Below are positions 8,554-52,617 of a stretch of 64,000 bases of DNA, in pieces. The stretch is taken from IMG/VR virus record IMGVR_UViG_3300020165_000001; one strand, 5' to 3'. Below the pieces are notes generated by a model, which worked only from the letters and a program-made list of their open reading frames with translations, did not search any database and was not told where the DNA came from. The DNA is from an uncultured virus (IMG/VR IMGVR_UViG_3300020165_000001) (lineage: Duplodnaviria; Heunggongvirae; Uroviricota; Caudoviricetes). The translations under genes and the position numbers were made by a program. Position 1 is the stretch's first letter, and the number at the start of each line of letters is the position of its first letter.

Positions 8554-8567
8554 ATCTATTGTTTTAG

Positions 8568-16577: not shown

Positions 16578-16771
16578 GATGGATTCTTGCTTAACCATCC
16601 TAAAGCGTGCTCAACAGCCTTATCTTTCTCTCTAGTAGGTGCTTTATCTACTATAACATTCATTAAATCTAAGATAACTCTTTTAGCATCTCTTGTTATA
16701 CTATTGTTAATGCATTTCATTTGAGAATTGTATAATTCTTCAAAGTATTGATTGTGTAGTTCGTCTATCAT
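16574..16771 (-). CDS. Hypothetical protein
   Basis: 65-aa coupled ORF. Confidence 0.5.
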   Translation of the reverse strand: MIDELHNQYFEELYNSQMKCINNSITRDAKRVILDLMNVIVDKAPTREKDKAVEHALGWLSKNPS

Positions 16772-17028
16772 TATATTACTGGTATTGTTCCTAATTTTTC
16801 AAATGTAGTGGATATAGCTCCACCATCATTACCTTCATCATCCATCATTGGTACTAACCAATATTTATTATCTAACTGAATAGCTATTGGGCGCTTATAC
16901 CACATATTATCTTCCATTTCATGTCTAGTCATATATTCTACTTTTGTTATTTTCTTGCCAACTAAATGTTTAGCAATTTTTTCTGTCCAGTATTGTTCTA
17001 CTGGTTTTCCTTCAATTTTGCACTCCAT
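16771..17028 (-). CDS. Phage hypothetical protein (DDEGNDGG motif)
   Basis: LVGKKITKVEYM...MDDEGNDGGA. Confidence 0.6.
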   Translation of the reverse strand: MECKIEGKPVEQYWTEKIAKHLVGKKITKVEYMTRHEMEDNMWYKRPIAIQLDNKYWLVPMMDDEGNDGGAISTTFEKLGTIPVI

Positions 17029-17177
17029 AATTCATTTATTTTATTAAATTCTTCTATTAATATATTTTCTTCATTATCTGATAATTTTAAAAATCCTTGT
17101 ATGTATAAATTAAATAATTCAAAAATACTTGGATTGTAACCAAACTTTTCTTTATAATTTTTTATTATTGTTTCCAT
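16998..17177 (-). CDS. Hypothetical protein (59 aa, not in track)
   Basis: METIIKNYKEKFGYNPSIFELFNLY..., ATG17177 to TAG16998. Confidence 0.45.
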   Translation of the reverse strand: METIIKNYKEKFGYNPSIFELFNLYIQGFLKLSDNEENILIEEFNKINELWSAKLKENQ

Positions 17178-17190
17178 AATTTATTTATTT

Positions 17191-17535
17191 TTATTGTGCT
17201 GCCCATCCAATAAAGTAAAAAGCTTTGATACCTTTCTTGCCTTTATAACCTCTACTTTCTTTCATTTTTTTTAAGACTGCTCCTGTTATTTCTATACATA
17301 TACAGCTTCCCCATTTTTCTGCAAATTCTAGCATACTATCTTCCCACTTCCAAAACGCTTTAGTTGCATATCTTGGATTGTCATCACGCATTTTAAAGCC
17401 TGATGTTGTTGATATTGTACCATTGTAACTATCATGACCATAATCATGTAATGCATCCTCTACTAAGCTGTTATAAGCTTCTGAGGCGTTTTTGTATCTA
17501 CCGACTGCCAAATTTCCAAAATTTGTTGCTCCCAT
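17191..17535 (-). CDS. Phage early hypothetical protein
   Basis: MGATNF...YGHDSYNGTIST...KWG...FIGWA. Confidence 0.6.
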   Translation of the reverse strand: MGATNFGNLAVGRYKNASEAYNSLVEDALHDYGHDSYNGTISTTSGFKMRDDNPRYATKAFWKWEDSMLEFAEKWGSCICIEITGAVLKKMKESRGYKGKKGIKAFYFIGWAAQ

Positions 17536-17559
17536 AATTTTATTATTTTAATTAATTAA

Positions 17560-17586
17560 TAATAGTAAAAGGGGGCGTTAGCCCCC
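17560..17586 (-). promoter_or_regulatory. TAAC-loop hairpin plus TTTACTATTA cassette
   Basis: Minus strand GGGGGC-TAAC-GCCCCC-TTTTACTATTA. Confidence 0.7.
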
Positions 17587-17597
17587 TCTCATGTTGT

Positions 17598-18467
17598 TTA
17601 ATAATTTAACAAAAACTTATATGCGTTTTCGTTCATTTTACCAGCAGATCCAGTAATAATACTTTCTTGCTTACCATTTTTCCTTAATGGTGCTGACTTA
17701 TGATGTGTTGTATATTTAGTTATACCATTAAATACACCCCATTTAGTATGTGATATTCTAGACATTTCACTATCTATACAATGTGCTATATCATATATCA
17801 TATTTTGTTTTCTAGAAGACATATCTTTTTCTGTAGCCATTCTATCTGTATTTGTTAAATAATCTATTAAATCATTTACCAAAGTAGGTGTAGCAGACTG
17901 ATCGCTAAATCTTTGCAAGTTAGCAATCTTTTCTTCTTGTGATGTAAAGTTAATTATAGCAGGCAATTCTTTTACTTTATCCTGTATAGACTGTGTATGT
18001 CTATAACCTGATATTGCATTAGAATTTAACCAGCCAAATTGATTTTGACAGAATATTACTTTATTCATAAATCCAAACTTAAGGCTACTAGATCCATCAT
18101 GACTGTTAATAGCATATATGTATTGTTCAGTGTCCTGCCCACCTATAACTACATGGTTATTAGGGCGTTTCATCTGTACCATTACTTTTCTACCTTCGTT
18201 AAAAGGCATTGCTTTTACTATTTCTAAATCATTCTGACCAGCAATTTCTTGCATAGTTTCTATAATAGTATGATTTTGTGTAGGAGTGTACGCTTCTTTT
18301 ACTGTAGCAAATACTTCTCCAGTATCTTCTCTTACTATACCATAGTAGTCTGTAGAGTGTAATCCATTGTTAGCATCTGTTGTGCATTCTCCTGCATAAA
18401 GCAGTGGTTTCTTAACTACATTCCAGTTAAGTCCATTTTGTTCTAAAATTTCTTCTGTATTAAGCAT
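17598..18467 (-). CDS. DUF932/DUF945-family protein
   Basis: GLNWNV...YTPTQN...NSHDGSSS...CQNQ...RHT...TKWGVFNGIT. Confidence 0.85.
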   Translation of the reverse strand: MLNTEEILEQNGLNWNVVKKPLLYAGECTTDANNGLHSTDYYGIVREDTGEVFATVKEAYTPTQNHTIIETMQEIAGQNDLEIVKAMPFNEGRKVMVQMKRPNNHVVIGGQDTEQYIYAINSHDGSSSLKFGFMNKVIFCQNQFGWLNSNAISGYRHTQSIQDKVKELPAIINFTSQEEKIANLQRFSDQSATPTLVNDLIDYLTNTDRMATEKDMSSRKQNMIYDIAHCIDSEMSRISHTKWGVFNGITKYTTHHKSAPLRKNGKQESIITGSAGKMNENAYKFLLNY

Positions 18468-18927
18468 AATCTAATTCTAATTTAGTTAATAATTCTTCTG
18501 GTGTTCCATGAAATATCTCTGTAGCTTCGCTTCTACTATCTATTTCATACACTGTTAGGTGTATTTGTTTATCTTCTTCTGATATTTCATATAGATATTC
18601 TTCCCAGCATTCTGAAGCGTCAGGATGCATACAGTATATACCTCCTACATTAGATGTTGGTGTTCCATCATCTTTGCATCCGCTTGATTTAAAATGTACA
18701 AACATTTGTGCTGCTAGACAGTCCATACCATTAAACATAGGCTCAGACTTATCTAAAGGTATACCATTTACAACTGTATATCCAGATAACCATTCTGCTA
18801 ATTCAGCACCATGACCACTCATGTAGCCGTCATATTGACGGTACATACATGTAAGTGGTTGTCTGTGTTTTTTACCTGTTGTATCTTCCCAGGTTCTTAT
18901 TACTTTAGTTAATGATCTAGTTCCCAA
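18460..18927 (-). CDS. Phage early hypothetical protein
   Basis: MGTRS...MYRQYDGY...NGMDCLAAQ...EYLYEI; TTG start. Confidence 0.65.
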   Translation of the reverse strand: MGTRSLTKVIRTWEDTTGKKHRQPLTCMYRQYDGYMSGHGAELAEWLSGYTVVNGIPLDKSEPMFNGMDCLAAQMFVHFKSSGCKDDGTPTSNVGGIYCMHPDASECWEEYLYEISEEDKQIHLTVYEIDSRSEATEIFHGTPEELLTKLELDYA

Positions 18928-18928
18928 A

Positions 18929-19105
18929 TTATTTTGTTTTATTTGTTAATGACTCTGATATTGTTTCTGTTATCAATGACAACACTTTTGCATACGCTTC
19001 ATTTGATCCTAAGCGATATTCTTCAGATCTATTATCTGTATTTTCTCTGCTTATTGCAAGCTCCAGCTCTACAAGAGTTGCTATTTTACCTATTAGTATT
19101 TCCAT
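18929..19105 (-). CDS. Hypothetical protein (58 aa, not in track)
   Basis: MEILIGKIATLVELEL...; fills the gap exactly. The listed + ORF 18934-19119 is its shadow. Confidence 0.55.
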   Translation of the reverse strand: MEILIGKIATLVELELAISRENTDNRSEEYRLGSNEAYAKVLSLITETISESLTNKTK

Positions 19106-19107
19106 AT

Positions 19108-19317
19108 CTATTGTTTTAGTTCTTTAATTTCCCAATTTTCATGAGCTATATCCATTTGCTCAAGTTCTTTTTCAGCTATTAGCGCCCATAAACCCTCATC
19201 ACCAGATAAGACTTTATCGTTAATAGTTGTTTTATGATCTCTTCCATCATCAGGAAATTTTAAAAACACACTTGTAGTATATTCTCTAGTTACTCTAAGT
19301 TCATATTCTTTATGCAT
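19108..19317 (-). CDS. Hypothetical protein
   Basis: 69-aa ORF in the operon. Confidence 0.5.
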   Translation of the reverse strand: MHKEYELRVTREYTTSVFLKFPDDGRDHKTTINDKVLSGDEGLWALIAEKELEQMDIAHENWEIKELKQ

Positions 19318-19414
19318 TGTCTTTTATTAATTTAGTCATTAATTTTACTAGCTTTTCCATAGCTTCAGCTAGTCTCTTGATGTCATTAGCTAGTTCTTGA
19401 TCTAATCTAGTCAT
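19310..19414 (-). CDS. Small coiled-coil peptide (34 aa, not in track)
   Basis: MTRLDQELANDIKRLAEAMEKLVKLMTKLIKDNA; overlaps both neighbours. Confidence 0.5.
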   Translation of the reverse strand: MTRLDQELANDIKRLAEAMEKLVKLMTKLIKDNA

Positions 19415-19655
19415 GGTAATAGCTTGTAATTCTTTCTATAATTCCTCTACCGTTAGCTGTATGAAACCCATAGCTATGTGTATGAAGCTCAGGTATTGGT
19501 TTGTTTTCTAATAACAAATATAGTAAGTCCCATTCGTTGTCATAATCCATATCTTCACGAGTTTGGTTTACAGCTTGTGCTAGTGCATAGACATCATGCC
19601 TTGGCTCACAATTAAGCGTGTTTATTATATATGATTCTACCTCTTGTCCACTCAT
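19407..19655 (-). CDS. Hypothetical protein
   Basis: 82-aa ORF. Confidence 0.5.
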   Translation of the reverse strand: MSGQEVESYIINTLNCEPRHDVYALAQAVNQTREDMDYDNEWDLLYLLLENKPIPELHTHSYGFHTANGRGIIERITSYYHD

Positions 19656-19659
19656 AATA

Positions 19660-19947
19660 TTAATGTTCTTGTTGGTCTTTAAAACTTGTAAAGCTCTTTG
19701 CTTTAACTACATTAGTTTTTTTATTTCTGTCAATATATTGAACGGCTTTTAATCCCTCCCATATTTCAGTTTCTCTTTTTACTACTTTGTAGCATTCTTC
19801 AATTAACATTTCTCTCTGTATTTCTACAGGTTTAGTTGGATTAACTGTGATGCTTTGCCCATAGTTAATCTTTACTGCTTCAAAGTTGCCTATATTTATA
19901 GACTTACTTACATTGAATGATATTGATGTTGTTTCTATTTTACTCAT
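19660..19947 (-). CDS. Hypothetical protein
   Basis: SINIGNFEAVKI motif; 95 aa. Confidence 0.55.
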   Translation of the reverse strand: MSKIETTSISFNVSKSINIGNFEAVKINYGQSITVNPTKPVEIQREMLIEECYKVVKRETEIWEGLKAVQYIDRNKKTNVVKAKSFTSFKDQQEH

Positions 19948-20216
19948 CTTTTAAATTGTTTTAAGTTTAAAAATCTTAACATATCTTTTTTAAGATCTGT
20001 TGTTTTATTTCTTAGCTTTTCCATTTCAAAGTATAAACCTCTTTCACCAAGATATGTATTGCTAATGCTTTCCAGTCTGTCTTTTAAATTATTAACAGAA
20101 GGTATTAGTTTGTTTTTAATAATAGTAAGTTCTTTCTGTCTCTCTATGTATGCTCTCCATGCATCGTAAGACTCATAAACTCTTTCTCCTATTTTTCTAA
20201 TTCTCATTGGTTCCAT
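19944..20216 (-). CDS. Hypothetical protein
   Basis: 90-aa ORF. Confidence 0.5.
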   Translation of the reverse strand: MEPMRIRKIGERVYESYDAWRAYIERQKELTIIKNKLIPSVNNLKDRLESISNTYLGERGLYFEMEKLRNKTTDLKKDMLRFLNLKQFKR

Positions 20217-20748
20217 TTACTTTAATTTTAGCAGGCTTAATATCAGCCACGTTAATACTTATTGTTTCTGTTTCTTCTCCACATGAAAGACATTTAGCTT
20301 CATATTCATCATCAAATAATACTTCTGCTTCACAGCATTCTGAAGCTGCGTCTAAGTCCCATGTAAAATCATCCCATATTACTTCATACTGTGCTGATAG
20401 TCTACCACCAAAGCACATGCCTGGCTCTTCGTATTCTAACGTAAAACATAAGTCGGGAAAATCTTGCATAATATTGTCTACCCATTGTATAGGAGGGCCC
20501 CAAGCTGATTCAAAGTTTACAGAAAAGTAATCTTTATCATCATGGTTTATATGTGGTTCGCAAGCATCCCATTTAGTTCCCCAATTAGCTATACTCCATT
20601 CATACCAATCTTTACGATCACCACGAGGAAGCGTTCCTTCAAATGAAAACTCTGTTTCTTTATGAGCATTCATAGATTTTTCTACAAATTCATGTAGTTG
20701 TTTTTCGTCACCTGATACTTCTAGGTGATTCCAGCACCAATTTGGCAT
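20197..20748 (-). CDS. DUF1281/YubB ferredoxin-like-domain protein
   Basis: MPNWCWN...WYEWSIANWGTKWD...FESAWGPP...YEEPG. Confidence 0.8.
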   Translation of the reverse strand: MPNWCWNHLEVSGDEKQLHEFVEKSMNAHKETEFSFEGTLPRGDRKDWYEWSIANWGTKWDACEPHINHDDKDYFSVNFESAWGPPIQWVDNIMQDFPDLCFTLEYEEPGMCFGGRLSAQYEVIWDDFTWDLDAASECCEAEVLFDDEYEAKCLSCGEETETISINVADIKPAKIKVNGTNEN

Positions 20749-20769
20749 AATTATTTGTTTTTAGTTAAT

Positions 20770-21227
20770 AAAAAAGGAAGAGAGTAGTAGGATAACAGCA
20801 AACGTTAGTTATCATTCCGTGGCCACACGCTACCACTACTCTCAACCTATTAATACACAACCCTTGAGTGACTGAAACTACTCTTCACCAGTGTTGTAGA
20901 TATGTAAAAAAGAACAGGCTATAGTACAGCTCGCGAGATGTCTATGACACAGACTATATTCGTGCTTGGTACAGTAAGAGAGCTACTCTTACTAAGTAAA
21001 TACGTATATAGTATTTACAGCCTTATTTTATACCTGTTCTTATAACAAAAAGAGGTAGGTTGAATCAGACCGATAGCGAGGAAAACCCTCTTTAGCATGC
21101 TATCTATATGTAACAACCCTTGGCATAGGATTTAGCTACTGTGTACCTACCTCTCTTATAACAAGAAAGAGGTTAGTGATGCATGCTTTTAAGCTGCCTG
21201 CAGGGCTTCTGCGCACGTCTCTTTCTT
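20770..21227 (-). ncRNA. Tandem array of candidate structured RNAs
   Basis: ORF-free region of about 460 nt with four consecutive multibranch elements closed by 8-10 bp perfect stems. Confidence 0.55.
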
Positions 21228-21619
21228 TATATTTGTGATGCTAATGCTTTAATCTGTTCGGGACTAATGCGACTAGCAATTGTTTTATATTTAGTTTTAA
21301 ATCTAGCTCTATGCTTAGTAAAAGCATTTACTATCTTATAGTATCTAGATATGTGTTTTCTTCTTAATGACTTATATTCTTCATTAGCCATATTTACTCT
21401 TTTTATAAATTCATTATATTTAGAGAATTTTCTTACAGCACCGCTAAGGTATTGTATTTCAAGTGTTTTAGCATTCTTGTAGTGTATAATACTGTCTGCA
21501 TATTTCTTTCTAAATGATGCATGTGCGATATCATATTTACTGATGTCAGGTGATTTTGCATCAATTAGTTTTTTTAAATCTTTCAGATAAGCTGAAGTAA
21601 TTTCATAAGGTTCTTTCAT
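21227..21619 (-). CDS. Basic hypothetical protein
   Basis: 130-aa ORF preceded by the early motif. Confidence 0.55.
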   Translation of the reverse strand: MKEPYEITSAYLKDLKKLIDAKSPDISKYDIAHASFRKKYADSIIHYKNAKTLEIQYLSGAVRKFSKYNEFIKRVNMANEEYKSLRRKHISRYYKIVNAFTKHRARFKTKYKTIASRISPEQIKALASQI

Positions 21620-21648
21620 GGTAAAAAGTTTTAGTTAGTATTATAGAG

Positions 21649-21682
21649 AATAGTAAAAAAGGAAGGAGCGTTAGCTCCGACC
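21649..21682 (-). promoter_or_regulatory. TAAC-loop hairpin plus TTTACTATT cassette
   Basis: Minus strand GGAGC-TAAC-GCTCC-TTCCTTTTTTACTATT. Confidence 0.7.
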
Positions 21683-21685
21683 TGT

Positions 21686-21937
21686 TTATTTGTAGTTGTT
21701 TAATTCTTCTTCTGTCAACGGTTTAGGTGTTAATGCTGTGAATATAGAGAATAATACTCCTGCAATAACAGCTGTAGCTAAGCCACTGAATGTACCTATA
21801 AATAACATAGGTAGTAATACGGTAAACAGTATGTCCCAGAATGTCTGAGTCTTTACTAGTCTACGCCTGCCTAAGGCTTTATATACTATGATATAATAAC
21901 CTATGGCAGCGAAGAATGCAGTTCCAATGATACTCAT
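21686..21937 (-). CDS. Small multi-pass membrane protein
   Basis: About three hydrophobic segments; LFIGTFSG...AGVLFS. Confidence 0.6.
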   Translation of the reverse strand: MSIIGTAFFAAIGYYIIVYKALGRRRLVKTQTFWDILFTVLLPMLFIGTFSGLATAVIAGVLFSIFTALTPKPLTEEELNNYK

Positions 21938-22245
21938 TAGAATGGCAGATTTTCTACAGTTTCTGTTAATTCTGCTTTAGCAGCAGCTTGAGGATTGTAG
22001 TCATTATGACTCATACTGTGAGTGAATTTACTACCCTCTTTGTTACTCCATACATCTGTTTGAACATAACCATTTGCATTTACATTCTCTTTCATCCAGT
22101 TGCAGAACTTTCTTGCATCAAAGTTTATCTTCATTAAAGTGTTACCATTATCAAATGTTATTTCTTTAATAAATACTCCTGATGCGAAATTAGTTTCTTT
22201 CTTTGCTACTGATTTCTTTGTTGCTTTTTTTGCTTTTGTTGCCAT
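21937..22245 (-). CDS. Small possible ssDNA-binding protein
   Basis: FASGVFIK...NANGYV, basic N-terminus, C-terminal ENLPF. Confidence 0.45.
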   Translation of the reverse strand: MATKAKKATKKSVAKKETNFASGVFIKEITFDNGNTLMKINFDARKFCNWMKENVNANGYVQTDVWSNKEGSKFTHSMSHNDYNPQAAAKAELTETVENLPF

Positions 22246-22308
22246 TTTTAGTTTAGTGGTTAAGCCACAAGCTATTAATTAATAATTAGTTTATTGTAAA
22301 TAGTAAAA

Positions 22309-22373
22309 ATAATCCCCTACGACTTGCACGCCAAGGTCCACTTTGCCACAAGGGCAGATTAGACAGGGATTAT
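22309..22373 (-). ncRNA. Candidate small structured RNA with its own upstream motif
   Basis: ATAATCCC/GGGATTAT closing stem, two inner hairpins, U-tract; TTTACTATTA at 22387-22396 just upstream. Confidence 0.5.
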
Positions 22374-22463
22374 ATATTGTTATAGTTAATAGTAAATAAC
22401 TAGAAGTTATAGAAGTATAGTTTATTAACTAAGTCTATATCCTTAAGATAGATGTTTAATATG

Positions 22464-23117
22464 TTATACACTTTCAATAAGTTTATTCATGTTTTTAGAA
22501 TCATCCATAAAATCGTTTTTACGCATAGCTCTAAATCCATCTTCTTGAGCATATTCTACCCATCCTCTTACAGATGATTGAATAATAAATTTATTGCATA
22601 TTAAATCAGCAATTTCATTAGGTTGTCCTGGTTCCGTTGGCCAACCATCAAATAACATAGTTAGTATATCTCCACGATTATCTTTATACCATCTTCCACT
22701 TACTAATATAGTTGTACCTTTCTTTGCTTCAGATATGAAATAGTCCATTGTTTCTTTAAATGAAATTCTTTCAGTTTCCGAATCACTAAAGTATATATCT
22801 ATTGTAAAGGGTAATAGCTCTTTTTGTTCAATATCTAGATAGTCACCTGTTTCTAAGAACCATTTATAAGCTTCTGCTCCTGTTTTATTTATTCCATGAT
22901 AATAATGGTGATAAACAAAATGTGGAGAGTTGTTAGTAGGTGCTATTGTATTTTGTATATTTATTAATAGATCAGTTAAAGTTTTGTGATTACGAGTGTA
23001 CTCGCCTGTTTCTATTAAATGTTCAATCCATCCTTTACATTTTTTTAGTATTTCTGATGAGCGTTCATTAGCATCATCCCATCCTCTTTCATATTCTGTG
23101 TCAATTAAATTTTCCAT
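22464..23117 (-). CDS. Hypothetical protein
   Basis: 217-aa ORF. Confidence 0.55.
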   Translation of the reverse strand: MENLIDTEYERGWDDANERSSEILKKCKGWIEHLIETGEYTRNHKTLTDLLINIQNTIAPTNNSPHFVYHHYYHGINKTGAEAYKWFLETGDYLDIEQKELLPFTIDIYFSDSETERISFKETMDYFISEAKKGTTILVSGRWYKDNRGDILTMLFDGWPTEPGQPNEIADLICNKFIIQSSVRGWVEYAQEDGFRAMRKNDFMDDSKNMNKLIESV

Positions 23118-23152
23118 AGTTTTATATTTGTTTAGTTAATGTTTAGGTTAAA

Positions 23153-23274
23153 AAGAGTAAGCCTCTTGAGTGTGATGGTACCCCCATCTGCTCTTTTATA
23201 GCGTAGTGATACTTCAATATATCACTATGTACTATAGTTATTAATGAGCTCTCACGCAAGTTAAGACTTACTCT
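23153..23274 (-). ncRNA. Candidate multibranch structured RNA
   Basis: AGAGTAAG/CTTACTCT closing stem; inner GATGG/CCATC and TAGTGATA/TATCACTA stems; U-tract on the minus strand. Confidence 0.5.
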
Positions 23275-23290
23275 CTTATGTAAAGAGCGA

Positions 23291-23584
23291 CTAATCCACT
23301 CTTATGTTTACGTCTCTTATAGAATAACAGTAATCTTGTACCATATCCTCAAAGCAAGTAGACCAATCTATGAATGGCATATTTACTAATTGCATATCTA
23401 TTACTGCTTTATCTTTAGCACGCTGTTCCATTATATCGTGTAAAGGTTCTACTTTGTATGTATGGAATACTGGTGTATCCATATGAATTGTTGTTGAGCA
23501 AGATGTACACTCAACTAAGTTGTGTGAATGCTCAAATGCTGTTGTGCTGTTGCAGTTATTGCAACTAATGTCTGTAAGTTTCAT
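23291..23584 (-). CDS. Zinc-ribbon protein
   Basis: CNNC...CTSC. Confidence 0.55.
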   Translation of the reverse strand: MKLTDISCNNCNSTTAFEHSHNLVECTSCSTTIHMDTPVFHTYKVEPLHDIMEQRAKDKAVIDMQLVNMPFIDWSTCFEDMVQDYCYSIRDVNIRVD

Positions 23585-23624
23585 ATAATAATATGTATTA
23601 GTAAGTAATTAGTTTATCTATTAT

Positions 23625-23654
23625 TAATAGTAAAAAAGGGAGCCGTTAGGCTCC
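23625..23654 (-). promoter_or_regulatory. TAAC-loop hairpin plus TTTACTATTA cassette
   Basis: Minus strand GGAGCC-TAAC-GGCTCC-CTTTTTTACTATTA. Confidence 0.75.
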
Positions 23655-23659
23655 GATTA

Positions 23660-23881
23660 TTAGAATGGTAAGTCATCATCATTTCCTTTTGATACTTGAT
23701 TGATTTCGCAATGCAACCAATTTTCATATGATAATGGGTTATCATTGCAATTATTGCAATAAGTTTTGTAATCAGACTGAAGTTGTTCTTGGATACGTTG
23801 ATGTTCTTCGGGTGTTGTGTCTCGCATTGTAGGTACTCCGTCTTTGTCATCAAATACTACGTTTTTAGATTTGTCAAGCAT
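23660..23881 (-). CDS. Small early protein with SSB-like C-terminal tail
   Basis: Likely start MLDKSK (ATG23881); ends GNDDDLPF. Confidence 0.55.
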   Translation of the reverse strand: MLDKSKNVVFDDKDGVPTMRDTTPEEHQRIQEQLQSDYKTYCNNCNDNPLSYENWLHCEINQVSKGNDDDLPF

Positions 23882-23954
23882 TTTATTATATGTATTGATT
23901 AATGTTATTATTAATAGTAAATATATGCGGAGCAATTAGAGTGATATATTATTA

Positions 23955-24020
23955 GTGAGTGAAACGAACACAGTAATGATGAGAGATAAGCGAGCAGTTC
24001 GTAGAACATATTTGCGAGCA
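23955..24020 (+). other. Strand-specific ssDNA-type hairpins (GNA triloops, tandem G.A pairs)
   Basis: GTGAGT-GAA-ACGAAC and GCGAGC-A-GTTC-GTA-GAAC-ATATTT-GCGAGC. Confidence 0.55.
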
Positions 24021-24030
24021 GTGTAAAAGA

Positions 24031-24046
24031 GGAGCCGTTAGGCTCC
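24031..24046 (-). terminator. Conserved TAAC-loop hairpin
   Basis: GGAGCC-TAAC-GGCTCC-TCTTTTAC, identical stem to 23639 and 24318. Confidence 0.7.
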
Positions 24047-24066
24047 GTCTATTGGAATGGTTAGTT

Positions 24067-24273
24067 TTACCACCACCAATCATCACTCCTACTCTCATCA
24101 TAAGCTTTCTCTGCTTTATTTGCTTTATCTATATCAGCTTTTTTATGCTTATAGATATATTTATTGTGCTTTACACTCAATCTATAAAATAGATGGTATT
24201 GTGATATAGTCAAATTCACTCCTCTGTCTCTACAGAATGCATTTAATAATATTGCTTGTCCTACTGTCATCAT
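24067..24273 (-). CDS. Hypothetical early protein
   Basis: 68 aa, ends DDWWW; preceded by the early motif. Confidence 0.5.
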   Translation of the reverse strand: MMTVGQAILLNAFCRDRGVNLTISQYHLFYRLSVKHNKYIYKHKKADIDKANKAEKAYDESRSDDWWW

Positions 24274-24304
24274 ATCTTTATATGTTTTAGTTAATACTTA
24301 TTAA

Positions 24305-24333
24305 TAATAGTAAAAAAGGAGCCGTTAGGCTCC
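24305..24333 (-). promoter_or_regulatory. TAAC-loop hairpin plus TTTACTATTA cassette
   Basis: Minus strand GGAGCC-TAAC-GGCTCC-TTTTTTACTATTA. Confidence 0.75.
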
Positions 24334-24339
24334 ATAGTT

Positions 24340-24522
24340 TTAAATAGATAGTTCATAATAATCTATCATTGATAATGGTTTTGTATTGATTGTTTCTAAA
24401 AAGTCACAATAAATAAACCATTCTAATTTTAATGTTTTAAATTCTTTTAGTGATTGAATTTTATCAGCCACTAAGTTGTTGAAGATATTTAATTCTTCTT
24501 GTGTTGTGATTATCTCACTCAT
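24340..24522 (-). CDS. Hypothetical early protein
   Basis: 60 aa; motif at 24554-24563 upstream. Confidence 0.5.
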   Translation of the reverse strand: MSEIITTQEELNIFNNLVADKIQSLKEFKTLKLEWFIYCDFLETINTKPLSMIDYYELSI

Positions 24523-24567
24523 AATGTATATATATTAATTAATAACTTATTATTAATAGTAAATATT

Positions 24568-24710
24568 TAATCAGCTAAATATATTAAGGAATATAGTTTG
24601 TTGTAAAAAATAGCTAGAACGCTTGACAATGTCATTTAAAATGTATAACTTCGCAAACTCAATAGTTAGTTATTATACTAATCAGCTAAATATATTAGAA
24701 CATATAGTTT
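24568..24710. repeat. 19-bp exact (about 32-bp imperfect) direct repeat in AT-rich non-coding DNA
   Basis: TAATCAGCTAAATATATTA at 24568-24586 and 24679-24697, each followed 4 nt later by ATATAGTTT. Confidence 0.8.
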
Positions 24711-24887
24711 ATACTTATTATAATCATTACTAATGTATTAATTGATTGATTATCAATGTTTTAACTTAATACTTATAGTGTTTATAGGTATTATAGTATA
24801 GTTATTAAGGGTGTTAGACTGTATCACACTCACACTTATATCCGCAATATTTATAGTATTTTCACAGATAATGTTAAAAAAAGAGAA

Positions 24888-25025
24888 CTAATTGTTCTCT
24901 CTTATTTCTTTTTTAGCTTCTTTGATACCTTGTTTAACGCCTTCTGATATACCAACGTATATTCCGACCATTGTACCTACTGTCTTACCAGTTAAAACTG
25001 CTGCTTTGTTTACTAAATCTTTCAT
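24888..25025 (-). CDS. First gene of the minus block (45 aa, not in track)
   Basis: MKDLVNKAAVLTGKTVGTMVGIYVGISEGVKQGIKEAKKEIRENN; TTTACTATT motif 32 nt upstream; AGAGAAC/GTTCTCT hairpin with T-tract at the stop. Confidence 0.55.
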   Translation of the reverse strand: MKDLVNKAAVLTGKTVGTMVGIYVGISEGVKQGIKEAKKEIRENN

Positions 25026-25160
25026 GATATTTTTAGTTTAATTAATACTTATTTAAAATAGTAAAAAGAAAGATAGGGTGGGGTATCCAAAGATTTGAAA
25101 ACCAAGGGGGGTTTTAGGCATATAGTATCCCTCCCTCACAAAAAAAATAAAAATTTTTTA

Positions 25161-25168
25161 TATCTTTG
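25161..25168 (+). promoter_or_regulatory. Bacteroidota-type -7 promoter for the late block
   Basis: TATCTTTG, 21 nt upstream of ATG25190. Confidence 0.65.
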
Positions 25169-25189
25169 TAAAAACTTAAACCTTACGCT

Positions 25190-25735
25190 ATGACACAAGA
25201 AGATCAAAATCTACAAAGCTTATTCGCTAATTTAAATCAAGTATCCCGAAATTCTATGATAAGAGAGAAGGTTGGAGGAGGTACAGGTGGTGGTTCTAAT
25301 ATAGCAGAAGGGACTATGGATCCAAATACATTAATGACAGGTAATCCATATATTGCTAAGAATGTTGTTGAGTTTAATCAAGGAGGAATGGTAGGAGCAT
25401 CAGGTGCGCCAACAATGAATAATCCTTATATTGAAAAGATGAATCAATTAGTAGGCTTACAGCAAATGGTGAATGTAGGAAAAGGTTTAGCAAATAACGT
25501 CTTACAACAAGAAGCTATGATGTCTGCTCCTCAAGCAAACTACGGGATGAAAAGAAAGTATCAAGAAGGAGGAAACTTTCCACACAACATGTATCATCCA
25601 AAAACTGGATACAAAATAGTAGCAGAAGATAATGACGCACATACTAAATTAGCTAAGGCTGGATTTGGTCATACGCCTAAAGCTGCTTATGGTATGAAAA
25701 TGAAAAAAAGATACACTAACGGGGGTAGATTCTAA
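25190..25735 (+). CDS. Hypothetical protein with repeated (F/Y)xxGG and AxYGMK motifs, probably virion-internal
   Basis: FNQGG, ANYGMK, YQEGG, AAYGMK, YTNGG. Confidence 0.55.
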   Translation: MTQEDQNLQSLFANLNQVSRNSMIREKVGGGTGGGSNIAEGTMDPNTLMTGNPYIAKNVVEFNQGGMVGASGAPTMNNPYIEKMNQLVGLQQMVNVGKGLANNVLQQEAMMSAPQANYGMKRKYQEGGNFPHNMYHPKTGYKIVAEDNDAHTKLAKAGFGHTPKAAYGMKMKKRYTNGGRF

Positions 25736-39778: not shown

Positions 39779-42700
39779 ATGGCAAAAAAACAAGAACCTA
39801 AAAATACTTCTGAAAACGCAGGATTTTCTAAAGCACAAGGCTTTACACATGGAATGGTTAGTGATTTAGATCCTCACTTTCAATTAAAAGGAAGTTATGC
39901 AGATGCACAGAATATAAGATTAACTAACTCAGAAGGAGATACATTTACTGTAGAAAATATAGAAGGTAATAGTTTATTTGTAGATCTATCTACGTTTCAC
40001 ATAGACACTGTTGCTGATCAGTATCAACAAGCAGCTTCGTATCCAACATTTTATGATAGAGGACCAGAAAACGATGTAACTTTATTAACTAATTTAGAAA
40101 TATCTAATAGGTCTTCTATTGTAGGTCATGTTTCTTATGCAGACCAAATGTTATTAATAATTGTTGGTAGATTTGAGTATAATAGAGGAGACGGAACTCC
40201 TTTTGCCGAAACAAAAGACAGAACAATATTTCTTCTGGTTGATTTTAACAAAGATTTTGAAGTTACTAAAGTAACAGATTTAAGAGTTTGCTATAGTCAT
40301 GATGGTGGACAATATCCTGATTTAGGAATGAAGCAAGATATTCCTGTTCGTGTTGAGACAATGATAGAAAATCATTGTATTTCTAGAATATACTGGACAG
40401 ATAATGTTAATTCTCTAAAGACATTAAACATAAAACAACCTAGATTAGACCTTTTAACTATTGAGTCTCTTGATATAACACCTATCATGACTCCTTCACA
40501 ACCAGTTTTAGACAGAACCTTACACGGCTCATTGCCAGTAGGAGTTTATCAATATACATTTAAATACATTTCTGAAAATGGAGGAGAAACAACATTCTCA
40601 CCATTAAGTAATCTATATCATGTCTCAGATCAATCTTTTAGTAGCTCTATAACTTATGGAGGAGGGCCAAGAGGAAACTTGGGAACGCAAGGGTTTTCTT
40701 TAAAAGTGTATGATTGTGATCAAGATTTTGATCAAATAGAAATGTATGCTTTATTTTACGACTCATTAAATCAAGCTCCAAGAGTTGCTTTGGTAGACAG
40801 TGTCTCAATAAACGGAAGTACTGCTAGTTTTATGCATACTAATTGGAACTCAGAAATCACGCAAGGATTAGAAGAAATTTTAATTGAATCAAACACTTGG
40901 GATGTATGTAAAGATATAGCTATTAAAGATAATATTTTATTTGCTGCTAATTTAAAAGAAAAGAAAAATTGGATATCTGAAAAAGAATGGAATGTTAAAG
41001 TAATGAGGTATCGTATACAGCCAGGAACTGACGGAACGTATCTAGACGCTATGATTACTACTAACGACCCTGAAGTTAAACACTATACAGGCACACCTGG
41101 AAGCGCTACAGAGATAAGCAATGGAACGCAAGACGATGCTAGTCACTATTGTGGTCATGGTAATTTATTAGGAATTGATCAATATCTTTTAGCAAGTAAC
41201 CCTGAAATGGCTTATAATGGACAGTATGGCCATCCAATGTGGAGAACGCAGAGCTTCCAAAGATATAGACACGGGGGTCAGCTTAAAGGTAGAGTAAAAA
41301 CAAAATACGAATACAGGTATTTAGCAGATAAAATGACTTTAGGGGGAGAAAGTTTTAATTATGGATCTAATGGTTTAGGAGGTTGTAGGGTTACTTTTGG
41401 ATTACAAGAACGTATTGCTGATCAAACAACTAACCCACAATCATCTCCATACATATCAGCAACAGCCGCTCCTGAATCTTTAAAAACTGATTTTCAAGAT
41501 TTTCCAGCAGATGGTAATACTGTGAATGCCACTACACAAAAAGACACTGTATTTAAAACATCTATGTCTTTAGGGGGATCAAAAGATCCACACGTTACTG
41601 GTAATAAAAGAGGATACCAAAGAGGTGAGGTTTATAGGTTTGGGGTGCAAGTGTATGATTTAACAGGAGCTCCTGGAAATGTATTGTGGATAGGCGATAT
41701 AGAAACACCTCAACAGCATGATGTTTTAAGACAACTACGTGTAACTGACTCAGTTTACAGTCCATACAAAAAAACAACAGATGCATCTGGAGGATTAGGT
41801 ACAAGTATGATAAGTAATAAGCTTTTTGGAAGTAGTAATTACTCACAAGATCATCGTTTATCATATATTTATGGACACGTGATACCTCCTGTTGATGTAG
41901 AATGGTTTTCAGGAAGATTAGGTCAATCTATTAAAAATTTAGATGCTTATGTAAAAAAAACAGGAAATCAACAAGGCATACTTCCTAATGACGGCTCAAA
42001 TTCTGGTTTTACTCCTAACGGTATAAGAAAAGGATTGACTAACAGTGTTTTGAGAGTTAATACTGGGTCAAGTTGGGAATACCCTTGGGATATGGATCTA
42101 GACCATAATTATGATGATAATCATTATTTGCTTGATTTGTTTGTTAATTTTGAATTTAGAATACCAAGTGAAATATGCGCAAAGATTTCTGGATTTAGAG
42201 TTGTGAGAGCAGTTAGAACAGAAGACGATAGAAGTATAGTACAGCAAGGATTGTTAAATCAAACTGCACAATACGGAGATGCTACATTAGACTTAAAAGA
42301 CGGTTATGATGCAACAGAATTTTCAAACGCAGACAATAGCGCTTTTGATGACGACCCTGTATTTGTAAATGCTTACAACGCACAAGACACGAATACGCCA
42401 ACAACCCCAACACAAACAGAACAACCAGAATATAATACATATTTAAATGGTTATTTAGGACTAGCTGAAAATACTTATTATGCTTATAGCAACACTGGAA
42501 CTATAGCTGATGGTAAAGCAACTATTGGAGGAAACACGGCAGGAAAAATATTTTATTGGCCAGAGAGGTCTGATCGTAAAAACTTCGATACACATTATCA
42601 TTCGTATCCTGTACCAAATCACCAAGCAGGTACAAGCTCAGAATCAGGAGGACACTTAGCAACTCACTATAGAATGTCAGCTTATTTTGGTGGATATGAT

Positions 42701-45700
42701 AAGCTAACTAAAATAAACGCAACTTATGGTGATGTTGATTCTGCTGACACAAACGCTAATTTTGGCAGAACAGAGATAAGCGGAAGTATATTTACTTTAG
42801 ACTCTCCAGATAGCGCATTTGGTATAAGGCCATATACTTTTAGAGAGGGAGATGTTTTACGTATAGATAGTGTTTTGAAACTAAGTACTTCTTTGAGGTA
42901 TGGAAGCAGTGGTACTTTACCAGCGTATTACTATGCCCATACAGAAGGAGTGCAGAGTTCTAATTATTCCAACACACTTCTATGGAAGACAGGCGATAGA
43001 GATAAAACTGCACAGGAAGGTTTAAGCTACGCATCTCGTAAAGAAATAAATGATAACTATGGTGTTTTAGTGGCAAAATATTATTGTTTTGATCCTTATT
43101 ATGGAATAGGTATGGAAATCACTGGAGGCTCGTATTGTGGTAGTTATTCTGGTGGTAATAATGGTGGGGCTAGACCATCTTCGCAAGGTTGGTATTTACC
43201 AATATCAGCAGCTAAAGAATTAAGTGATGGTGAAATTGTACCTTCTGGTTTTTTTAAGAAAAGCAGGAGAGTTTCCAAAGGAAGAATCCATGGATTTTCT
43301 AACAATACATTAGGCTATTGCAAACATCAAGCAACAACAAATGGTAAATATAATTATAAAGTTTGGGCTGGTGTAAGTAGTTTGCTAGCAAAAACCGTAG
43401 GAATCAATAATGCTACTCCAGTTGCTGGATGGACAGAAGCAAAGCAAAAGAAAGATTATACATACGACACCGTATCAACAATGCAAATGGGGTTGAGAAG
43501 TATATTAATTGAATTAAATACTAAAAGTAGTGAAGTTAGAAAAACAGGGTCTACCTCAACATCTACTTGGTTTAGCCATGGTCACACAAATGGAAATAAT
43601 GATAAAATGGATCATAGTGCCTGGTTTGCTCCTTATGATTTATCTATGATTTATGATCATGGGTCGTGGAATGGTAGTAGTAATACAAACGGATATGAAG
43701 GAGAATGGTGGAATAAACCGCAATGGATGTCTGTTTTAACTAAATATTTGGACTCTCAGTATTTAGGAACTAGTGGTAGTCAATGTAATGATAAATACAA
43801 AGGATATCATCCACATAATTTTTTATGTTCTATTGTTAGAAAAGTAACTCCATATAATGGTTGGACAAAAGGATCAATTGAAAAAACAAGATACATACCT
43901 TGTGGTAATTTTCATGAAGTACCAATTGCCCCTAACGATACTCCAGGAGAATGGCAAGGCCATTTATCACAAGTCTTTGGTGGTGATACTTTTGTAAATT
44001 TATACTCTCATCAAAAAACATCTGCACCATATATGAAAAAATCTATGGTTAGGTTTAAAGTATTTCCTGTAGAGTCCTATGTTAACACTGATATGAGAAG
44101 TGGATTAAATCTTAACAATGGAGATACAGTTATAGGTAAAGATATGAATACAGCTCCATTTAGTAATGATTGGTTATACAACTCTGTTTATTCGCAAGAG
44201 AATACAATTAAGTCTGCTTTAATGGTAGATGAAGATGAAAGTTGTGATAATTTAGATTTACCTTATGAAATAGCATATTCAAACACAAAAATATTAGGTC
44301 AAAAATCAGATGCATTTAGAGTCTTTCCTATAAATCAATTTCATGATATGGAAGGTCAGTATGGTGAGATTAATAGAATAGTTAATTTTAAAAATGAAAT
44401 ATATGTTTTACAAGATAGCGCTTTTTCTAAATTATTAGTTAATCCACTATCTATGTTAAGTGATGATTCTGGAACCTCTCTATTTACTGGAACAGGAGAA
44501 ACTGTAGAAAATCATATTTATATATCTACTAAGTATGGAACTAGGCATAGGTTTAGTGTAGCTTCTAGTGAAAAAGCATTGTACTTTGTTGATGTTAATT
44601 TCGGTAGACTATTTAGATACGATACAGAAAAGTTAGTATCTTTAGGAGATGCTTTAGGTCAAAGAAACTATTTAAGATATATTACTAAGCAATGGGAGAT
44701 GATATCTAAAAAGATTTGCCCTGCTAATAGTGGAGGTGGAGCTCCTTTTGGAACAACAACAACTACACACCCAGCTAATACAAATGTGCAACATGGTATA
44801 TACAAAACAGATATTAACAGTAAAGATAAAATAGGAAGAAACTATAAGTCAGATAATCCATTAAAATTCTTAGGTATTAATTCAATATTTGATTATACTA
44901 ATAAAGAGTTAATGGTAACTTTTCACAATAGTGCGTTTCCAGGGACTTCAAATAGAGCTTTTGCAAGAACATCAGATTTACATTCAATGGCTAATTTTGC
45001 AAATGGACAACCTATATCACACTCTGAAACATTAGTATATAATGAAGGTATAAATGCATTTACTTCTAAATACACCGTAGCGCCTCCACAATGGCTTACA
45101 GGGGCACAAGGAGCATTTATATTATGTCCTGAAAATCAAGTAAGTGCTTTTGAAGCAACAAATTTTTCTTACAAAGACAAAGCTTACAATCAAGTTGGAT
45201 CAAGCGATAACGCTTCTTATATAGATTTTAGAGCTAACCCTTTAAAATTATGGATTTGGGACAAGCATGATAAGGGTAAAAAGACACATTTCTTTGGAGA
45301 AAAAATAGGTTATGTAACCACTGAAACACAAGATTCTATTACTACACCTGGTACAAATGTAACTGCAAAAATTAAAACTTATGATTCTAAAGATTATGCT
45401 CATGAATCATATATAGTAAAAGTAGTTAATTCTGAAGCCTCTGATGCTAAGATATTTGATAATGCTGAAATTATTATAAGGCCTGCTAACGTACCTTTTA
45501 CTGATATAAAATATATTACAGACACTTCTATAGATAATGTATCTGCATATTCAACTATACACGATAAAACTATTACTATTGATGAAGAAGAACAAATTGT
45601 AATTAATAGAAGATGGGATTTTAATGACAGTTCTGAAGGTTGGTATTTTTATGATGGAACTGCTACAGCCACTGAAGCGTCTATAGTAAACACAGGAAAC

Positions 45701-46333
45701 TCTACATTGACATTAGATTACCAAGGAGACGGAATGTTTAGAAGTCCTAACAATAAATATGGATTTAATCAAGGTGGAGGAGATCAACTAAGACCAGATG
45801 ATAGAGGTTTCGTTGGAAAGTATAATAACAAAGTTAGAATGCGTGTTAAAAGAACTGAGATTGGAGCTTGGGAAGGAAAGATCTACTGGACAGGTACTGA
45901 TATTAAAAGATCTCTTGTAGGAACGCCATTATCTTGGGGTGAAAGTGGCTCAAGACAGGTAAACATACCAGAGCCTCCAGGAACAGGTGATTTTGGACAA
46001 GACGCTAATGGGGTAGATATTGTAGGGGGAATAGATCTTGATTTTGTAATTTTAGAATGGGATATGAGTGATTCAGCAGAATGGGATGATGCTAGAATTG
46101 AACAAATAAGGATAGATTTAGATTCTAGTACAGGAACATACGAAGTTGATTGGATAGAGATTGTAGGATTAAAAGCTAGTAAATATATTGACGGAGTATT
46201 AAAAACACCATTAAGAACTGATAAAAGTAAAGGAAGAACTAGAGGTACTTGGTCAAAAATCAAATACTCTGCAAATACTACAGAAAAATTTAATATCTTT
46301 GCAATACTTGCAAAGTACCGTAAACAACTATAA
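39779..46333 (+). CDS. Tail stabilisation/muzzle protein (P22 gp10-like)
   Basis: FTHGMVSDLDP...YADAQNIR, IYWTDNVN, GYQRGEVYRFG, FGGDTFV, YGEINRI, RTRGTW; 2184 aa. Confidence 0.8.
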   Translation: MAKKQEPKNTSENAGFSKAQGFTHGMVSDLDPHFQLKGSYADAQNIRLTNSEGDTFTVENIEGNSLFVDLSTFHIDTVADQYQQAASYPTFYDRGPENDVTLLTNLEISNRSSIVGHVSYADQMLLIIVGRFEYNRGDGTPFAETKDRTIFLLVDFNKDFEVTKVTDLRVCYSHDGGQYPDLGMKQDIPVRVETMIENHCISRIYWTDNVNSLKTLNIKQPRLDLLTIESLDITPIMTPSQPVLDRTLHGSLPVGVYQYTFKYISENGGETTFSPLSNLYHVSDQSFSSSITYGGGPRGNLGTQGFSLKVYDCDQDFDQIEMYALFYDSLNQAPRVALVDSVSINGSTASFMHTNWNSEITQGLEEILIESNTWDVCKDIAIKDNILFAANLKEKKNWISEKEWNVKVMRYRIQPGTDGTYLDAMITTNDPEVKHYTGTPGSATEISNGTQDDASHYCGHGNLLGIDQYLLASNPEMAYNGQYGHPMWRTQSFQRYRHGGQLKGRVKTKYEYRYLADKMTLGGESFNYGSNGLGGCRVTFGLQERIADQTTNPQSSPYISATAAPESLKTDFQDFPADGNTVNATTQKDTVFKTSMSLGGSKDPHVTGNKRGYQRGEVYRFGVQVYDLTGAPGNVLWIGDIETPQQHDVLRQLRVTDSVYSPYKKTTDASGGLGTSMISNKLFGSSNYSQDHRLSYIYGHVIPPVDVEWFSGRLGQSIKNLDAYVKKTGNQQGILPNDGSNSGFTPNGIRKGLTNSVLRVNTGSSWEYPWDMDLDHNYDDNHYLLDLFVNFEFRIPSEICAKISGFRVVRAVRTEDDRSIVQQGLLNQTAQYGDATLDLKDGYDATEFSNADNSAFDDDPVFVNAYNAQDTNTPTTPTQTEQPEYNTYLNGYLGLAENTYYAYSNTGTIADGKATIGGNTAGKIFYWPERSDRKNFDTHYHSYPVPNHQAGTSSESGGHLATHYRMSAYFGGYDKLTKINATYGDVDSADTNANFGRTEISGSIFTLDSPDSAFGIRPYTFREGDVLRIDSVLKLSTSLRYGSSGTLPAYYYAHTEGVQSSNYSNTLLWKTGDRDKTAQEGLSYASRKEINDNYGVLVAKYYCFDPYYGIGMEITGGSYCGSYSGGNNGGARPSSQGWYLPISAAKELSDGEIVPSGFFKKSRRVSKGRIHGFSNNTLGYCKHQATTNGKYNYKVWAGVSSLLAKTVGINNATPVAGWTEAKQKKDYTYDTVSTMQMGLRSILIELNTKSSEVRKTGSTSTSTWFSHGHTNGNNDKMDHSAWFAPYDLSMIYDHGSWNGSSNTNGYEGEWWNKPQWMSVLTKYLDSQYLGTSGSQCNDKYKGYHPHNFLCSIVRKVTPYNGWTKGSIEKTRYIPCGNFHEVPIAPNDTPGEWQGHLSQVFGGDTFVNLYSHQKTSAPYMKKSMVRFKVFPVESYVNTDMRSGLNLNNGDTVIGKDMNTAPFSNDWLYNSVYSQENTIKSALMVDEDESCDNLDLPYEIAYSNTKILGQKSDAFRVFPINQFHDMEGQYGEINRIVNFKNEIYVLQDSAFSKLLVNPLSMLSDDSGTSLFTGTGETVENHIYISTKYGTRHRFSVASSEKALYFVDVNFGRLFRYDTEKLVSLGDALGQRNYLRYITKQWEMISKKICPANSGGGAPFGTTTTTHPANTNVQHGIYKTDINSKDKIGRNYKSDNPLKFLGINSIFDYTNKELMVTFHNSAFPGTSNRAFARTSDLHSMANFANGQPISHSETLVYNEGINAFTSKYTVAPPQWLTGAQGAFILCPENQVSAFEATNFSYKDKAYNQVGSSDNASYIDFRANPLKLWIWDKHDKGKKTHFFGEKIGYVTTETQDSITTPGTNVTAKIKTYDSKDYAHESYIVKVVNSEASDAKIFDNAEIIIRPANVPFTDIKYITDTSIDNVSAYSTIHDKTITIDEEEQIVINRRWDFNDSSEGWYFYDGTATATEASIVNTGNSTLTLDYQGDGMFRSPNNKYGFNQGGGDQLRPDDRGFVGKYNNKVRMRVKRTEIGAWEGKIYWTGTDIKRSLVGTPLSWGESGSRQVNIPEPPGTGDFGQDANGVDIVGGIDLDFVILEWDMSDSAEWDDARIEQIRIDLDSSTGTYEVDWIEIVGLKASKYIDGVLKTPLRTDKSKGRTRGTWSKIKYSANTTEKFNIFAILAKYRKQL
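46294..46301 (+). promoter_or_regulatory. Bacteroidota-type -7 promoter for the ejection-protein genes
   Basis: TATCTTTG within the 3' end of the muzzle gene, 40 nt upstream of ATG46342. Confidence 0.45.
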
Positions 46334-52482: not shown

Positions 52483-52617
52483 ATGCCAGCAAGAGGATTA
52501 TACGCAAATATGAATGCTAGAAAAAAAGCAGGTACTTCTAGATCTAAAAAGAATACTACAATATCTAAAAAAGCATATTCTAATATGAAATCTGGATTTA
52601 AAAATAAAAAGAAGTAA
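52483..52617 (+). CDS. Small highly basic protein (44 aa, not in track)
   Basis: MPARGLYANMNARKKAGTSRSKKNTTISKKAYSNMKSGFKNKKK; its TAA overlaps the RNAP ATG. Confidence 0.65.
   Translation: MPARGLYANMNARKKAGTSRSKKNTTISKKAYSNMKSGFKNKKK

Follow-up and report, generated by a model that had tools for sequence, protein, structure and literature searches.

A clade-variable intergenic signal proposed as an early promoter for the virion RNA polymerase of an uncultured crAss-like marine phage

The crAss-like phages are among the most abundant viruses known, and the RNA polymerase (RNAP) that they inject has been solved structurally. In the literature that we searched, no promoter is described for virion RNAPs of the crAss type; the source on phage phi14:2 is a 2020 preprint, and the word promoter is absent from a 2023 review of the Crassvirales. 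Here we analyse 64,000 nucleotides (nt) of DNA from an uncultured virus (IMG/VR record IMGVR_UViG_3300020165_000001), a stretch that we call the window and that is nearly the whole genome of a marine phage, its relatives measuring 65–68 kb and being rated 97–100% complete. A 9-mer, TTTACTATT, recurs in it ahead of small genes on one strand. We consider the signal built on this 9-mer, TTTACTATT-N4-ATAR, to be a lineage-specific early promoter read by the virion RNAP, and give this reading a probability of about 0.55.

Promoters of the T7 group are compact signals that differ by a few bases between related phages and keep a more constant part near the start, and the early promoters of N4 are DNA hairpins that serve an injected, T7-like single-subunit virion RNAP. 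For phi14:2, the available text of the preprint reports that gp66 makes the rifampicin-resistant early transcripts and that, according to its authors, the middle promoters are read by a host-type RNAP (10.1101/2020.03.07.982082). The virion two-barrel RNAP of P23-45, gp96, has been assigned to a conserved AT-rich motif before the pre-early genes, a motif missing from relatives that have no such polymerase, as stated in the available text of that study (PMC10770324). In T4-type phages, PeSL cassettes are units of promoter and stem-loop terminator around small nonessential genes, as the available part of that article describes them (Arbiol et al. 2010, PMC2839356).

An exact search of both strands finds TTTACTATT 15 times in the window, whereas 100 dinucleotide-preserving shuffles of the window give a mean of 3.68 (standard deviation 2.02, maximum 9) and none of them reaches 15. 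Nine minus-strand copies fall within 17561-25065, at the sites listed by an earlier, sequence-only reading of this DNA (Table 1); five of its starts were one base too low because the trailing A had been included, and its distances to the next ATG agree with ours within 1 nt. That reading had also placed all nine between genes, which is true once one open reading frame (ORF) is called at 23660-23881 instead of 23614-23850; intergenic DNA amounts to 3604 nt, or 5.6%, of the window. Eight of the nine sites stand 25–53 nt ahead of a start codon, and the ninth (22388) has no ORF behind it and heads a short structured RNA. Over the nine sites the consensus reads TTTACTATT-N4-ATAR, with ATAA throughout except for ATAG at P5, often continued by G-TATTAAyTAA; the complete signal is thus TTTACTATT-N4-ATAR, often with N-TATTAAy after it. 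The remaining six copies of the 9-mer (four on the plus strand, two on the minus strand) are all within coding sequence and have no ATAR block behind them; their number is that expected by chance, so that the motif is not equally frequent in coding or late regions, in keeping with the sequence-only reading.

The block of small genes that carries these signals adjoins the divergent point at 25066-25189, and the region reads as a row of units, each made of a signal, a small gene and a terminator. Most ORFs behind P1–P9 are without a family match in Pfam or PHROGs, and we take the motif-headed genes to be early from their small size, unknown functions and position. The evidence supports a signal that is strand-specific, intergenic, acting at the DNA level and restricted to this early-looking gene block.

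Table 1. Coordinates of the proposed signals, terminator-like hairpins, host-type boxes and polymerase features in the window (aa, amino acids; gap, distance from the 9-mer to the ATG).
Feature	Position	Strand	9-mer, + coordinate	Gap (nt)	Remarks
P1	25042..25065	-	25057	31	TTTACTATT-N4-ATAA-G-TATTAA; heads 45-aa ORF 24888-25025; orthologous site aligned across clades
P2	24540..24563	-	24555	32	heads 60-aa ORF 24340-24522
P3	24291..24314	-	24306	32	directly after hairpin 24318-24333; heads 68-aa ORF 24067-24273
P4	23898..23921	-	23913	31	heads 73-aa ORF 23660-23881
P5	23611..23634	-	23626	41	ATAG form; directly after hairpin 23639-23654; heads 97-aa ORF 23291-23584
P6	22373..22396	-	22388	none	no ORF behind; heads structured RNA of ~65 nt ending in a T-run
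P7	22284..22307	-	22299	53	heads ORFs 21937-22245 and 21686-21937
P8	21634..21657	-	21649	29	after hairpin 21665-21678; heads ORF 21227-21619, a 478-nt noncoding stretch and an operon down to 17598
P9	17546..17569	-	17561	25	overlaps T-run of hairpin 17566-17591; heads ORF 17191-17535
Terminator-like hairpin	24318..24333	-			GGAGCC-TAAC-GGCTCC and T-run
Same hairpin	24031-24046	-
Same hairpin	23639-23654	-
Related terminator-like hairpin	21665-21678	-
Related terminator-like hairpin	17566-17591	-
Sense TAnnTTTG box	3256	+			ahead of replication/structural genes
Sense TAnnTTTG box	25161..25168	+			-7 box TATCTTTG, 21 nt ahead of rightward gene 25190; ahead of replication/structural genes
Sense TAnnTTTG box	31571	+			ahead of replication/structural genes
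Sense TAnnTTTG box	34821	+			ahead of replication/structural genes
Sense TAnnTTTG box	36739	+			ahead of replication/structural genes
Sense TAnnTTTG box	16029	-			before DnaB
Sense TAnnTTTG box	14559	-
Sense TAnnTTTG box	13045	-			before RusA
crAss muzzle protein gene	39779..46333	+			PF25731; RNAP gene downstream of it, placed as in phi14:2
Giant ORF	52617..63998	+			3794 aa up to the window's end; candidate virion RNAP
DLDGD codons	59673..59687	+			aa 2353-2357, within GADLDGDSVHM

The same genome carries promoters of a different kind. The Bacteroidota-type -7 box TAnnTTTG has 14 intergenic copies in the window, eight of them in sense and 4–34 nt ahead of a gene, and the middle promoters of phi14:2 before g070 and g075, as read from its genome, are of the CTTG...TAnnTTTG type with the same box. 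When all 14 were checked, none stood in sense in the nine motif-bearing gaps, which bears out the earlier remark that the motif-headed genes lack the host box; the nearest copy (17120-17127) is found past the last motif, 91 nt upstream of the gene at 17028. Sigma-70 hexamer pairs (TTGACA-17-TATAAT, 16–18 nt apart) are not enriched either, with 48 found against 50.3 (standard deviation 8.6) in shuffles of 16500-25500. Since its gaps hold no sense TAnnTTTG and the early region shows no such enrichment, we regard the TTTACTATT signal as a separate promoter class. A sigma-70 reading, with TTTACT as -35 and TATTAA as -10, was rejected, as it leaves a spacer of 12 nt and finds no enrichment; a promoter of the Bacteroidota primary sigma (-33 TTTG / -7 TAnnTTTG) was rejected for want of a box in any of the nine gaps.

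These results bear on the possibility that the signal is a promoter for the host RNAP, assisted by an alternative sigma of the host or by a small phage factor that the virion brings in or that is made first. The positional evidence would fit any promoter, this one included. Nevertheless, the -7 box found before other genes of the phage is missing at these sites, there is no enrichment of sigma-70-type hexamers, and neither a sigma factor nor a T7-like RNAP is found among the proteins of this nearly complete genome by Pfam and PHROGs; we consider a host-read promoter unlikely. The same searches led us to reject a promoter of the T7 group, for which a T7-like single-subunit RNAP would be needed. 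The build of the signal is nonetheless T7-like, being compact and clade-varying with its constant part beside the presumed start; the likeness of ACTAT to T7's CACTATA is probably chance.

Relatives were collected by a terminase search of IMG/VR, which returned 228, of which 80 loci were kept. Counting exact TTTACTATT sites with distinct contexts over the window and these 80 loci, with coding DNA called by a simple ORF caller, we find 77 sites. Of these, 41 lie between genes on the early strand, and 32 of them have ATAR at +14-17; 25 lie in coding DNA of the early strand, five with ATAR in that position; and the 11 on the other strand, all coding, have none. An ORF of at least 35 codons begins within 110 nt behind 30 of the 41 intergenic early-strand sites, at a gap of 25–35 nt in 28 of the 30. 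The other 11 are not followed by an ORF, some of them standing ahead of noncoding stretches with structure; together with P6 they indicate that the signal is independent of an ORF. Among related phages the signal is kept at the same places while the genes behind it differ. The 20-base pattern TTTACTATT-N4-ATAR-N-TATTAA matches 40 stretches in 2.9 million IMG/VR contigs: 16 belong to this phage family, including every one with at least four same-strand copies, and the other 24, which include giant-virus bins, hold one to three copies each. This restriction of the motif array to one phage family is a further point against a host-read promoter.

At several sites a GC hairpin stands directly upstream, its T-run overlapping the first T's of the motif, and terminator-like sites in 16500-25500 number 13 against 3.1 ± 1.9 expected. 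Because of this overlap we take the signal to act in DNA and see no space for a promoter further upstream. Across the family just 15 of the 41 sites have a hairpin immediately ahead of them, in each case with a T-run like that of a terminator; the hairpin is therefore not part of the signal. The sequence-only reading had left room for a conserved RNA-processing site, and more generally the motif might work at the RNA level in a long read-through transcript, either as a site of processing or as an element of the translation leader. The tightly kept distance to the start codon would suit such an element, and TATTAAy with its A-rich stretch resembles the AT-rich leaders before other genes. We nevertheless hold it to be highly improbable, given the T-runs that overlap the motif's T's, the 11 family sites without an ORF and the small structured RNA headed by P6; moreover, the variable part is the upstream 9-mer, which has no evident role in a leader.

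The hairpins also invite comparison with N4, which shares with this locus a few closely spaced early promoters, unused by the host RNAP, for an injected polymerase (here proposed), as well as GC hairpins, here beside several sites. In N4, however, it is the hairpin that is recognised, whereas the conserved part here is linear sequence and the hairpins look like terminators of the preceding genes. An N4-type hairpin promoter was rejected on the 15-of-41 count, the terminator-like T-runs and the two-barrel type of the polymerase described below. A TAAC loop is common to the early-region hairpins (9 of 15 upstream hairpins in the family), while hairpins after late genes have other loops; the shared loop could stem from duplication of the cassettes or mark a terminator peculiar to the phage polymerase.

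One relative, L005, shows how the units behave. Compared with the window, its DNA upstream of P3 (24306) is joined to DNA downstream of P5 (23626) exactly at the hairpin and motif, so that the two cassettes between P3 and P5 are missing, and it has extra cassettes before P2. To judge from this comparison, early genes seem to be swapped at the signal/hairpin units. The PeSL cassettes resemble this arrangement in forming arrays of units at which genes are gained and lost between relatives, going by the part of the article cited above. Here the PeSL architecture is present, with one clear swap at a unit; the PeSL promoters, however, are sigma-70-like and host-read, whereas our signal matches neither the sigma-70 nor the Bacteroidota consensus. 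The motif could accordingly be mainly an operator for an early shut-off regulator, or a PeSL-like recombination cassette, with a true start signal that is less conserved and lies nearby. The exact switching of gene content at the cassettes, for which PeSLs offer a precedent (PMC2839356, as far as its available part describes them), favours this account. PeSLs are themselves promoter plus terminator, though, so the idea is for the most part an addition to the promoter reading, not a substitute for it. Between the terminator T-run and the ATG there is no further conserved element capable of serving as a promoter, and the tight spacing of 25–35 nt to the ATG suggests a start signal. We judge the operator or cassette account to be quite improbable.

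Other clades, which lack TTTACTATT, have a 9-mer of their own that keeps the register, standing 13 nt ahead of the conserved ATAR-N-TATTAAy block. It reads TTTACTACT or TTTACNACT in L045 and L038, and TTTCAACTT or TTTCTACTT in L075 (G002), L019, L065, L077 and L079; a third form, around TTATATTAC, is found in L053, L055 and L056. For counting, class A was defined by TTTACTATT and class C by TTTCWACTT, and a class D pattern, being too loose, was left unused. Class A genomes carry 5–11 copies of TTTACTATT on the early strand and 0–1 on the other, and class C genomes 2–4 copies of their own form and 0–1 of class A. The exchange can be followed at the orthologous first promoter, which immediately follows the conserved element AAACTTTGGAYACC: the sequence there is TTTTACTATT in class A genomes, TTTTACAATT in L048, and TTTTACAACTT or TTTTTCAACTT in L019, L022 and L065. 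Class is not tied to terminase similarity to the window, as L019 is 93% identical yet class C, and L039, at 86%, is class A. That the 9-mer differs between close relatives with the same host-type boxes is hard to square with reading by a conserved host sigma. Placement on one strand, unlikeness to the host promoter and clade-wise change beside constant host-type boxes are what one expects of a promoter for a phage polymerase.

A candidate for that polymerase is at hand. The phage has a muzzle protein (PF25731, E-value 1.4e-137), crAss ring proteins 1 and 2 and a capsid protein ~26% identical to those of crAss-like phages, and downstream of the muzzle gene its gene order follows phi14:2. Cultured close relatives were not found by megablast of 17000-26000 against 50,697 phage records, nor terminase relatives in 185,579 prokaryote genomes; marine Flavobacteriia would be the probable hosts. 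In the position of phi14:2 g067 and g066 (the virion RNAP) lies a single giant ORF that runs off the window, with full-length homologues of 3750–4080 aa, complete copies extending only some tens of residues beyond the window's end; since 52-64 kb is one ORF in the standard code, alternative genetic codes were unneeded and set aside. The giant ORF has no match in Pfam, PHROGs or a PDB sequence search, its first 3000 aa have no tblastn match among phage records, and it was identified by fold search alone. An AlphaFold2 model of residues 1700-2850 (pLDDT 80.3, pTM 0.77) has phi14:2 gp66 as its best PDB match (6VR4 chain A, E-value 1.7e-21, TMq 0.60), followed by QDE-1, plant RDR2 and, weakly, the P23-45 polymerases (gp96 at E-value 0.026). 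Within it, the G, D, L, D, G and D of GADLDGD are the same in all 22 aligned homologues, even at 31% identity, and DLDGD is a putative Mg-binding catalytic loop. On this model, residues ~1700-2850 are predicted to be a gp66-like two-barrel RNAP core. From the invariant GADLDGD and the 6VR4 fold match we conclude that the phage has a crAss-type two-barrel RNAP, as the sequence-only reading had supposed. A side observation concerns the N-terminal third of the giant protein, where the consensus of the family shows an HExxH-like stretch (IIHExGH).

The two phages are thus alike in being crAss-like and of marine flavobacterial type, in carrying a gp66-like two-barrel polymerase downstream of muzzle and tail genes, in an early block divergent from the structural genes and in middle and late genes with host-type TTG/TAnnTTTG promoters; they differ in that the polymerase here lies within a protein of ~3800 aa with DLDGD, and that of phi14:2 has DFDID. 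P23-45 is similar in its AT-rich motif ahead of the first genes, in the sharing of that motif among relatives that carry the polymerase and in a two-barrel enzyme fused to a very large protein, which is the tape measure in P23-45. There, as the available text of that study relates (PMC10770324), starts were mapped by ONT-cappable-seq and the polymerase located by ChIP-seq, whereas the present signal is known from sequence alone; gp96 is only remotely like the polymerase here.

Among genomes with terminases 84–92% identical (G001-G005 and G011), the polymerase core is 51–65% identical, and the polymerase thus diverges much faster than the terminase. Identity to the window's core is 65% for G005 (class A), 59–62% in class C (62% for G003, ~60% for G002), ~52% for G011 (class B) and 56–59% for the unclassed G001 and G004; G010, G006, G007 and G012, fragmentary records without the gene region, were left out of this comparison.

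Taken together, we propose the following course of events. The two-barrel RNAP, carried in the giant virion protein (ORF 52617 onward), would enter the cell with the DNA and start at the nine sites without a host sigma. Short transcripts would result, each with one small early gene or small RNA, and most would end at a GC hairpin with a T-run that extends into the promoter behind it. The 9-mer would act as a clade-dependent specificity block, with ATAR in fixed register 4 nt downstream; our guess places the start of transcription close to the G at position 17/18. The host RNAP would then read the replication and structural genes from Bacteroidota TAnnTTTG promoters. The sequence-only reading had named the motif the promoter or start site of the virion RNAP. 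The promoter part of that proposal stands and is well supported, the signal being strand-specific, intergenic, conserved and distinct from the host-type promoter; the identity of the polymerase that reads it is something that we infer, and we propose the gp66-like enzyme because it is the only polymerase found in the window.

Several observations weigh against reading by the virion RNAP. Packaging of the giant protein is presumed from synteny with the phi14:2 g071-g066 block and from homology; packaging, reading of the motif by the polymerase and the location of the start site are all three steps that we infer. Polymerase-core identity does not split the motif classes sharply, which would also suit a host RNAP. 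No common motif was detected by the authors upstream of the gp66-made early transcripts of phi14:2, as far as the available text of the preprint goes (Drobysheva et al., 10.1101/2020.03.07.982082), whereas here there is a sharp signal of 17–24 nt, and the phi14:2 genome has no cluster of the downstream block ATARNTATTAAY. According to the same text, gp66 was active in vitro on single-stranded or denatured DNA only (10.1101/2020.03.07.982082). With no early motif and with activity confined to such templates, a promoter of duplex sequence is not established for the gp66 enzyme family, and both points lend support to the host RNAP as reader. The replication genes here have host-type boxes and not the early signal, whereas the replication module of phi14:2 is wholly early and rifampicin-resistant. 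The TATTAAy block is also present ahead of 31613, in the leader of a gene that has a host-type promoter, and may for that reason belong to the mRNA leader and not to the promoter. Lastly, two marine metatranscriptome runs cover small shares (0.09 and 0.06), in contigs that carry neither transcript starts nor strands.

More tentatively, the signal might be the first sequence-defined promoter for the gp66/QDE-1-like two-barrel RNAPs of crAss-like phages, built like those of the T7 group. Its 9-nt specificity block would then co-evolve with a fast-changing polymerase and yield mutually exclusive classes among freely recombining phages; ATAR would be a constant initiation block with the start at G 17/18, and the promoter-terminator units would be break points for early-gene swaps. 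With its clade variants, the candidate signal supplies ready templates for transcription in vitro and for structural work on an initiation complex, and the clade-specific 9-mers would permit specificity-swap experiments. The signal could also serve to annotate the early regions of uncultured relatives.

The early region holds noncoding stretches as well, and the available text of the phi14:2 preprint describes abundant early noncoding RNAs where we find structured candidates (10.1101/2020.03.07.982082); Rfam at gathering scores detects no RNA family in the window, and there are no tRNAs. Between P6 and P7, 22308-22372 (minus strand) is a candidate short structured RNA with a closing stem followed by a T-run (fold z -1.7), and in the relatives L039 and L052 copies of the signal likewise stand ahead of noncoding structured stretches. 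Within the P8 unit, the 478-nt noncoding stretch (20749-21226, minus strand) folds better than its shuffles, none of 100 doing as well (z -3.6). In the two metatranscriptome runs no other part of the region is as well covered, with a 523-nt contig without a difference in one instance and a depth of 26 in another. The stretch may be an abundant early noncoding RNA like those of phi14:2, on contigs that are blind to strand and ends and could include DNA carry-over.

A further noncoding stretch of ~320 nt, 24564-24887, is 73–76% conserved with G002 and G005, while the neighbouring genes are not conserved. It contains two copies of TAATATATTTAGCTGATTA, the palindrome TGACATTGTCA and several ACTATAA repeats, and the second repeat copy adjoins the upstream side of P2 in all clades; the stretch may serve as an origin or in regulation. 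A GC-rich element at 25075-25098 (minus strand AAATCTTTGGATACCCCACCC), conserved in all clades, lies where the early and rightward genes diverge, just upstream of the first early signal; it might be a site for a regulator or mark the vicinity of a genome end. Elsewhere in the window are a GroES-like co-chaperonin gene at 7885-8145 (PF00166, E-value 1.4e-16) and a spore-photoproduct-lyase-like radical SAM gene at 8568-9422 (PF20903, E-value 1.6e-23). The intergenic DNA at 8462-8567 holds a direct repeat of ATGCAAATACATATAAT, in two copies ~40 nt apart, ahead of a small minus-strand ORF.

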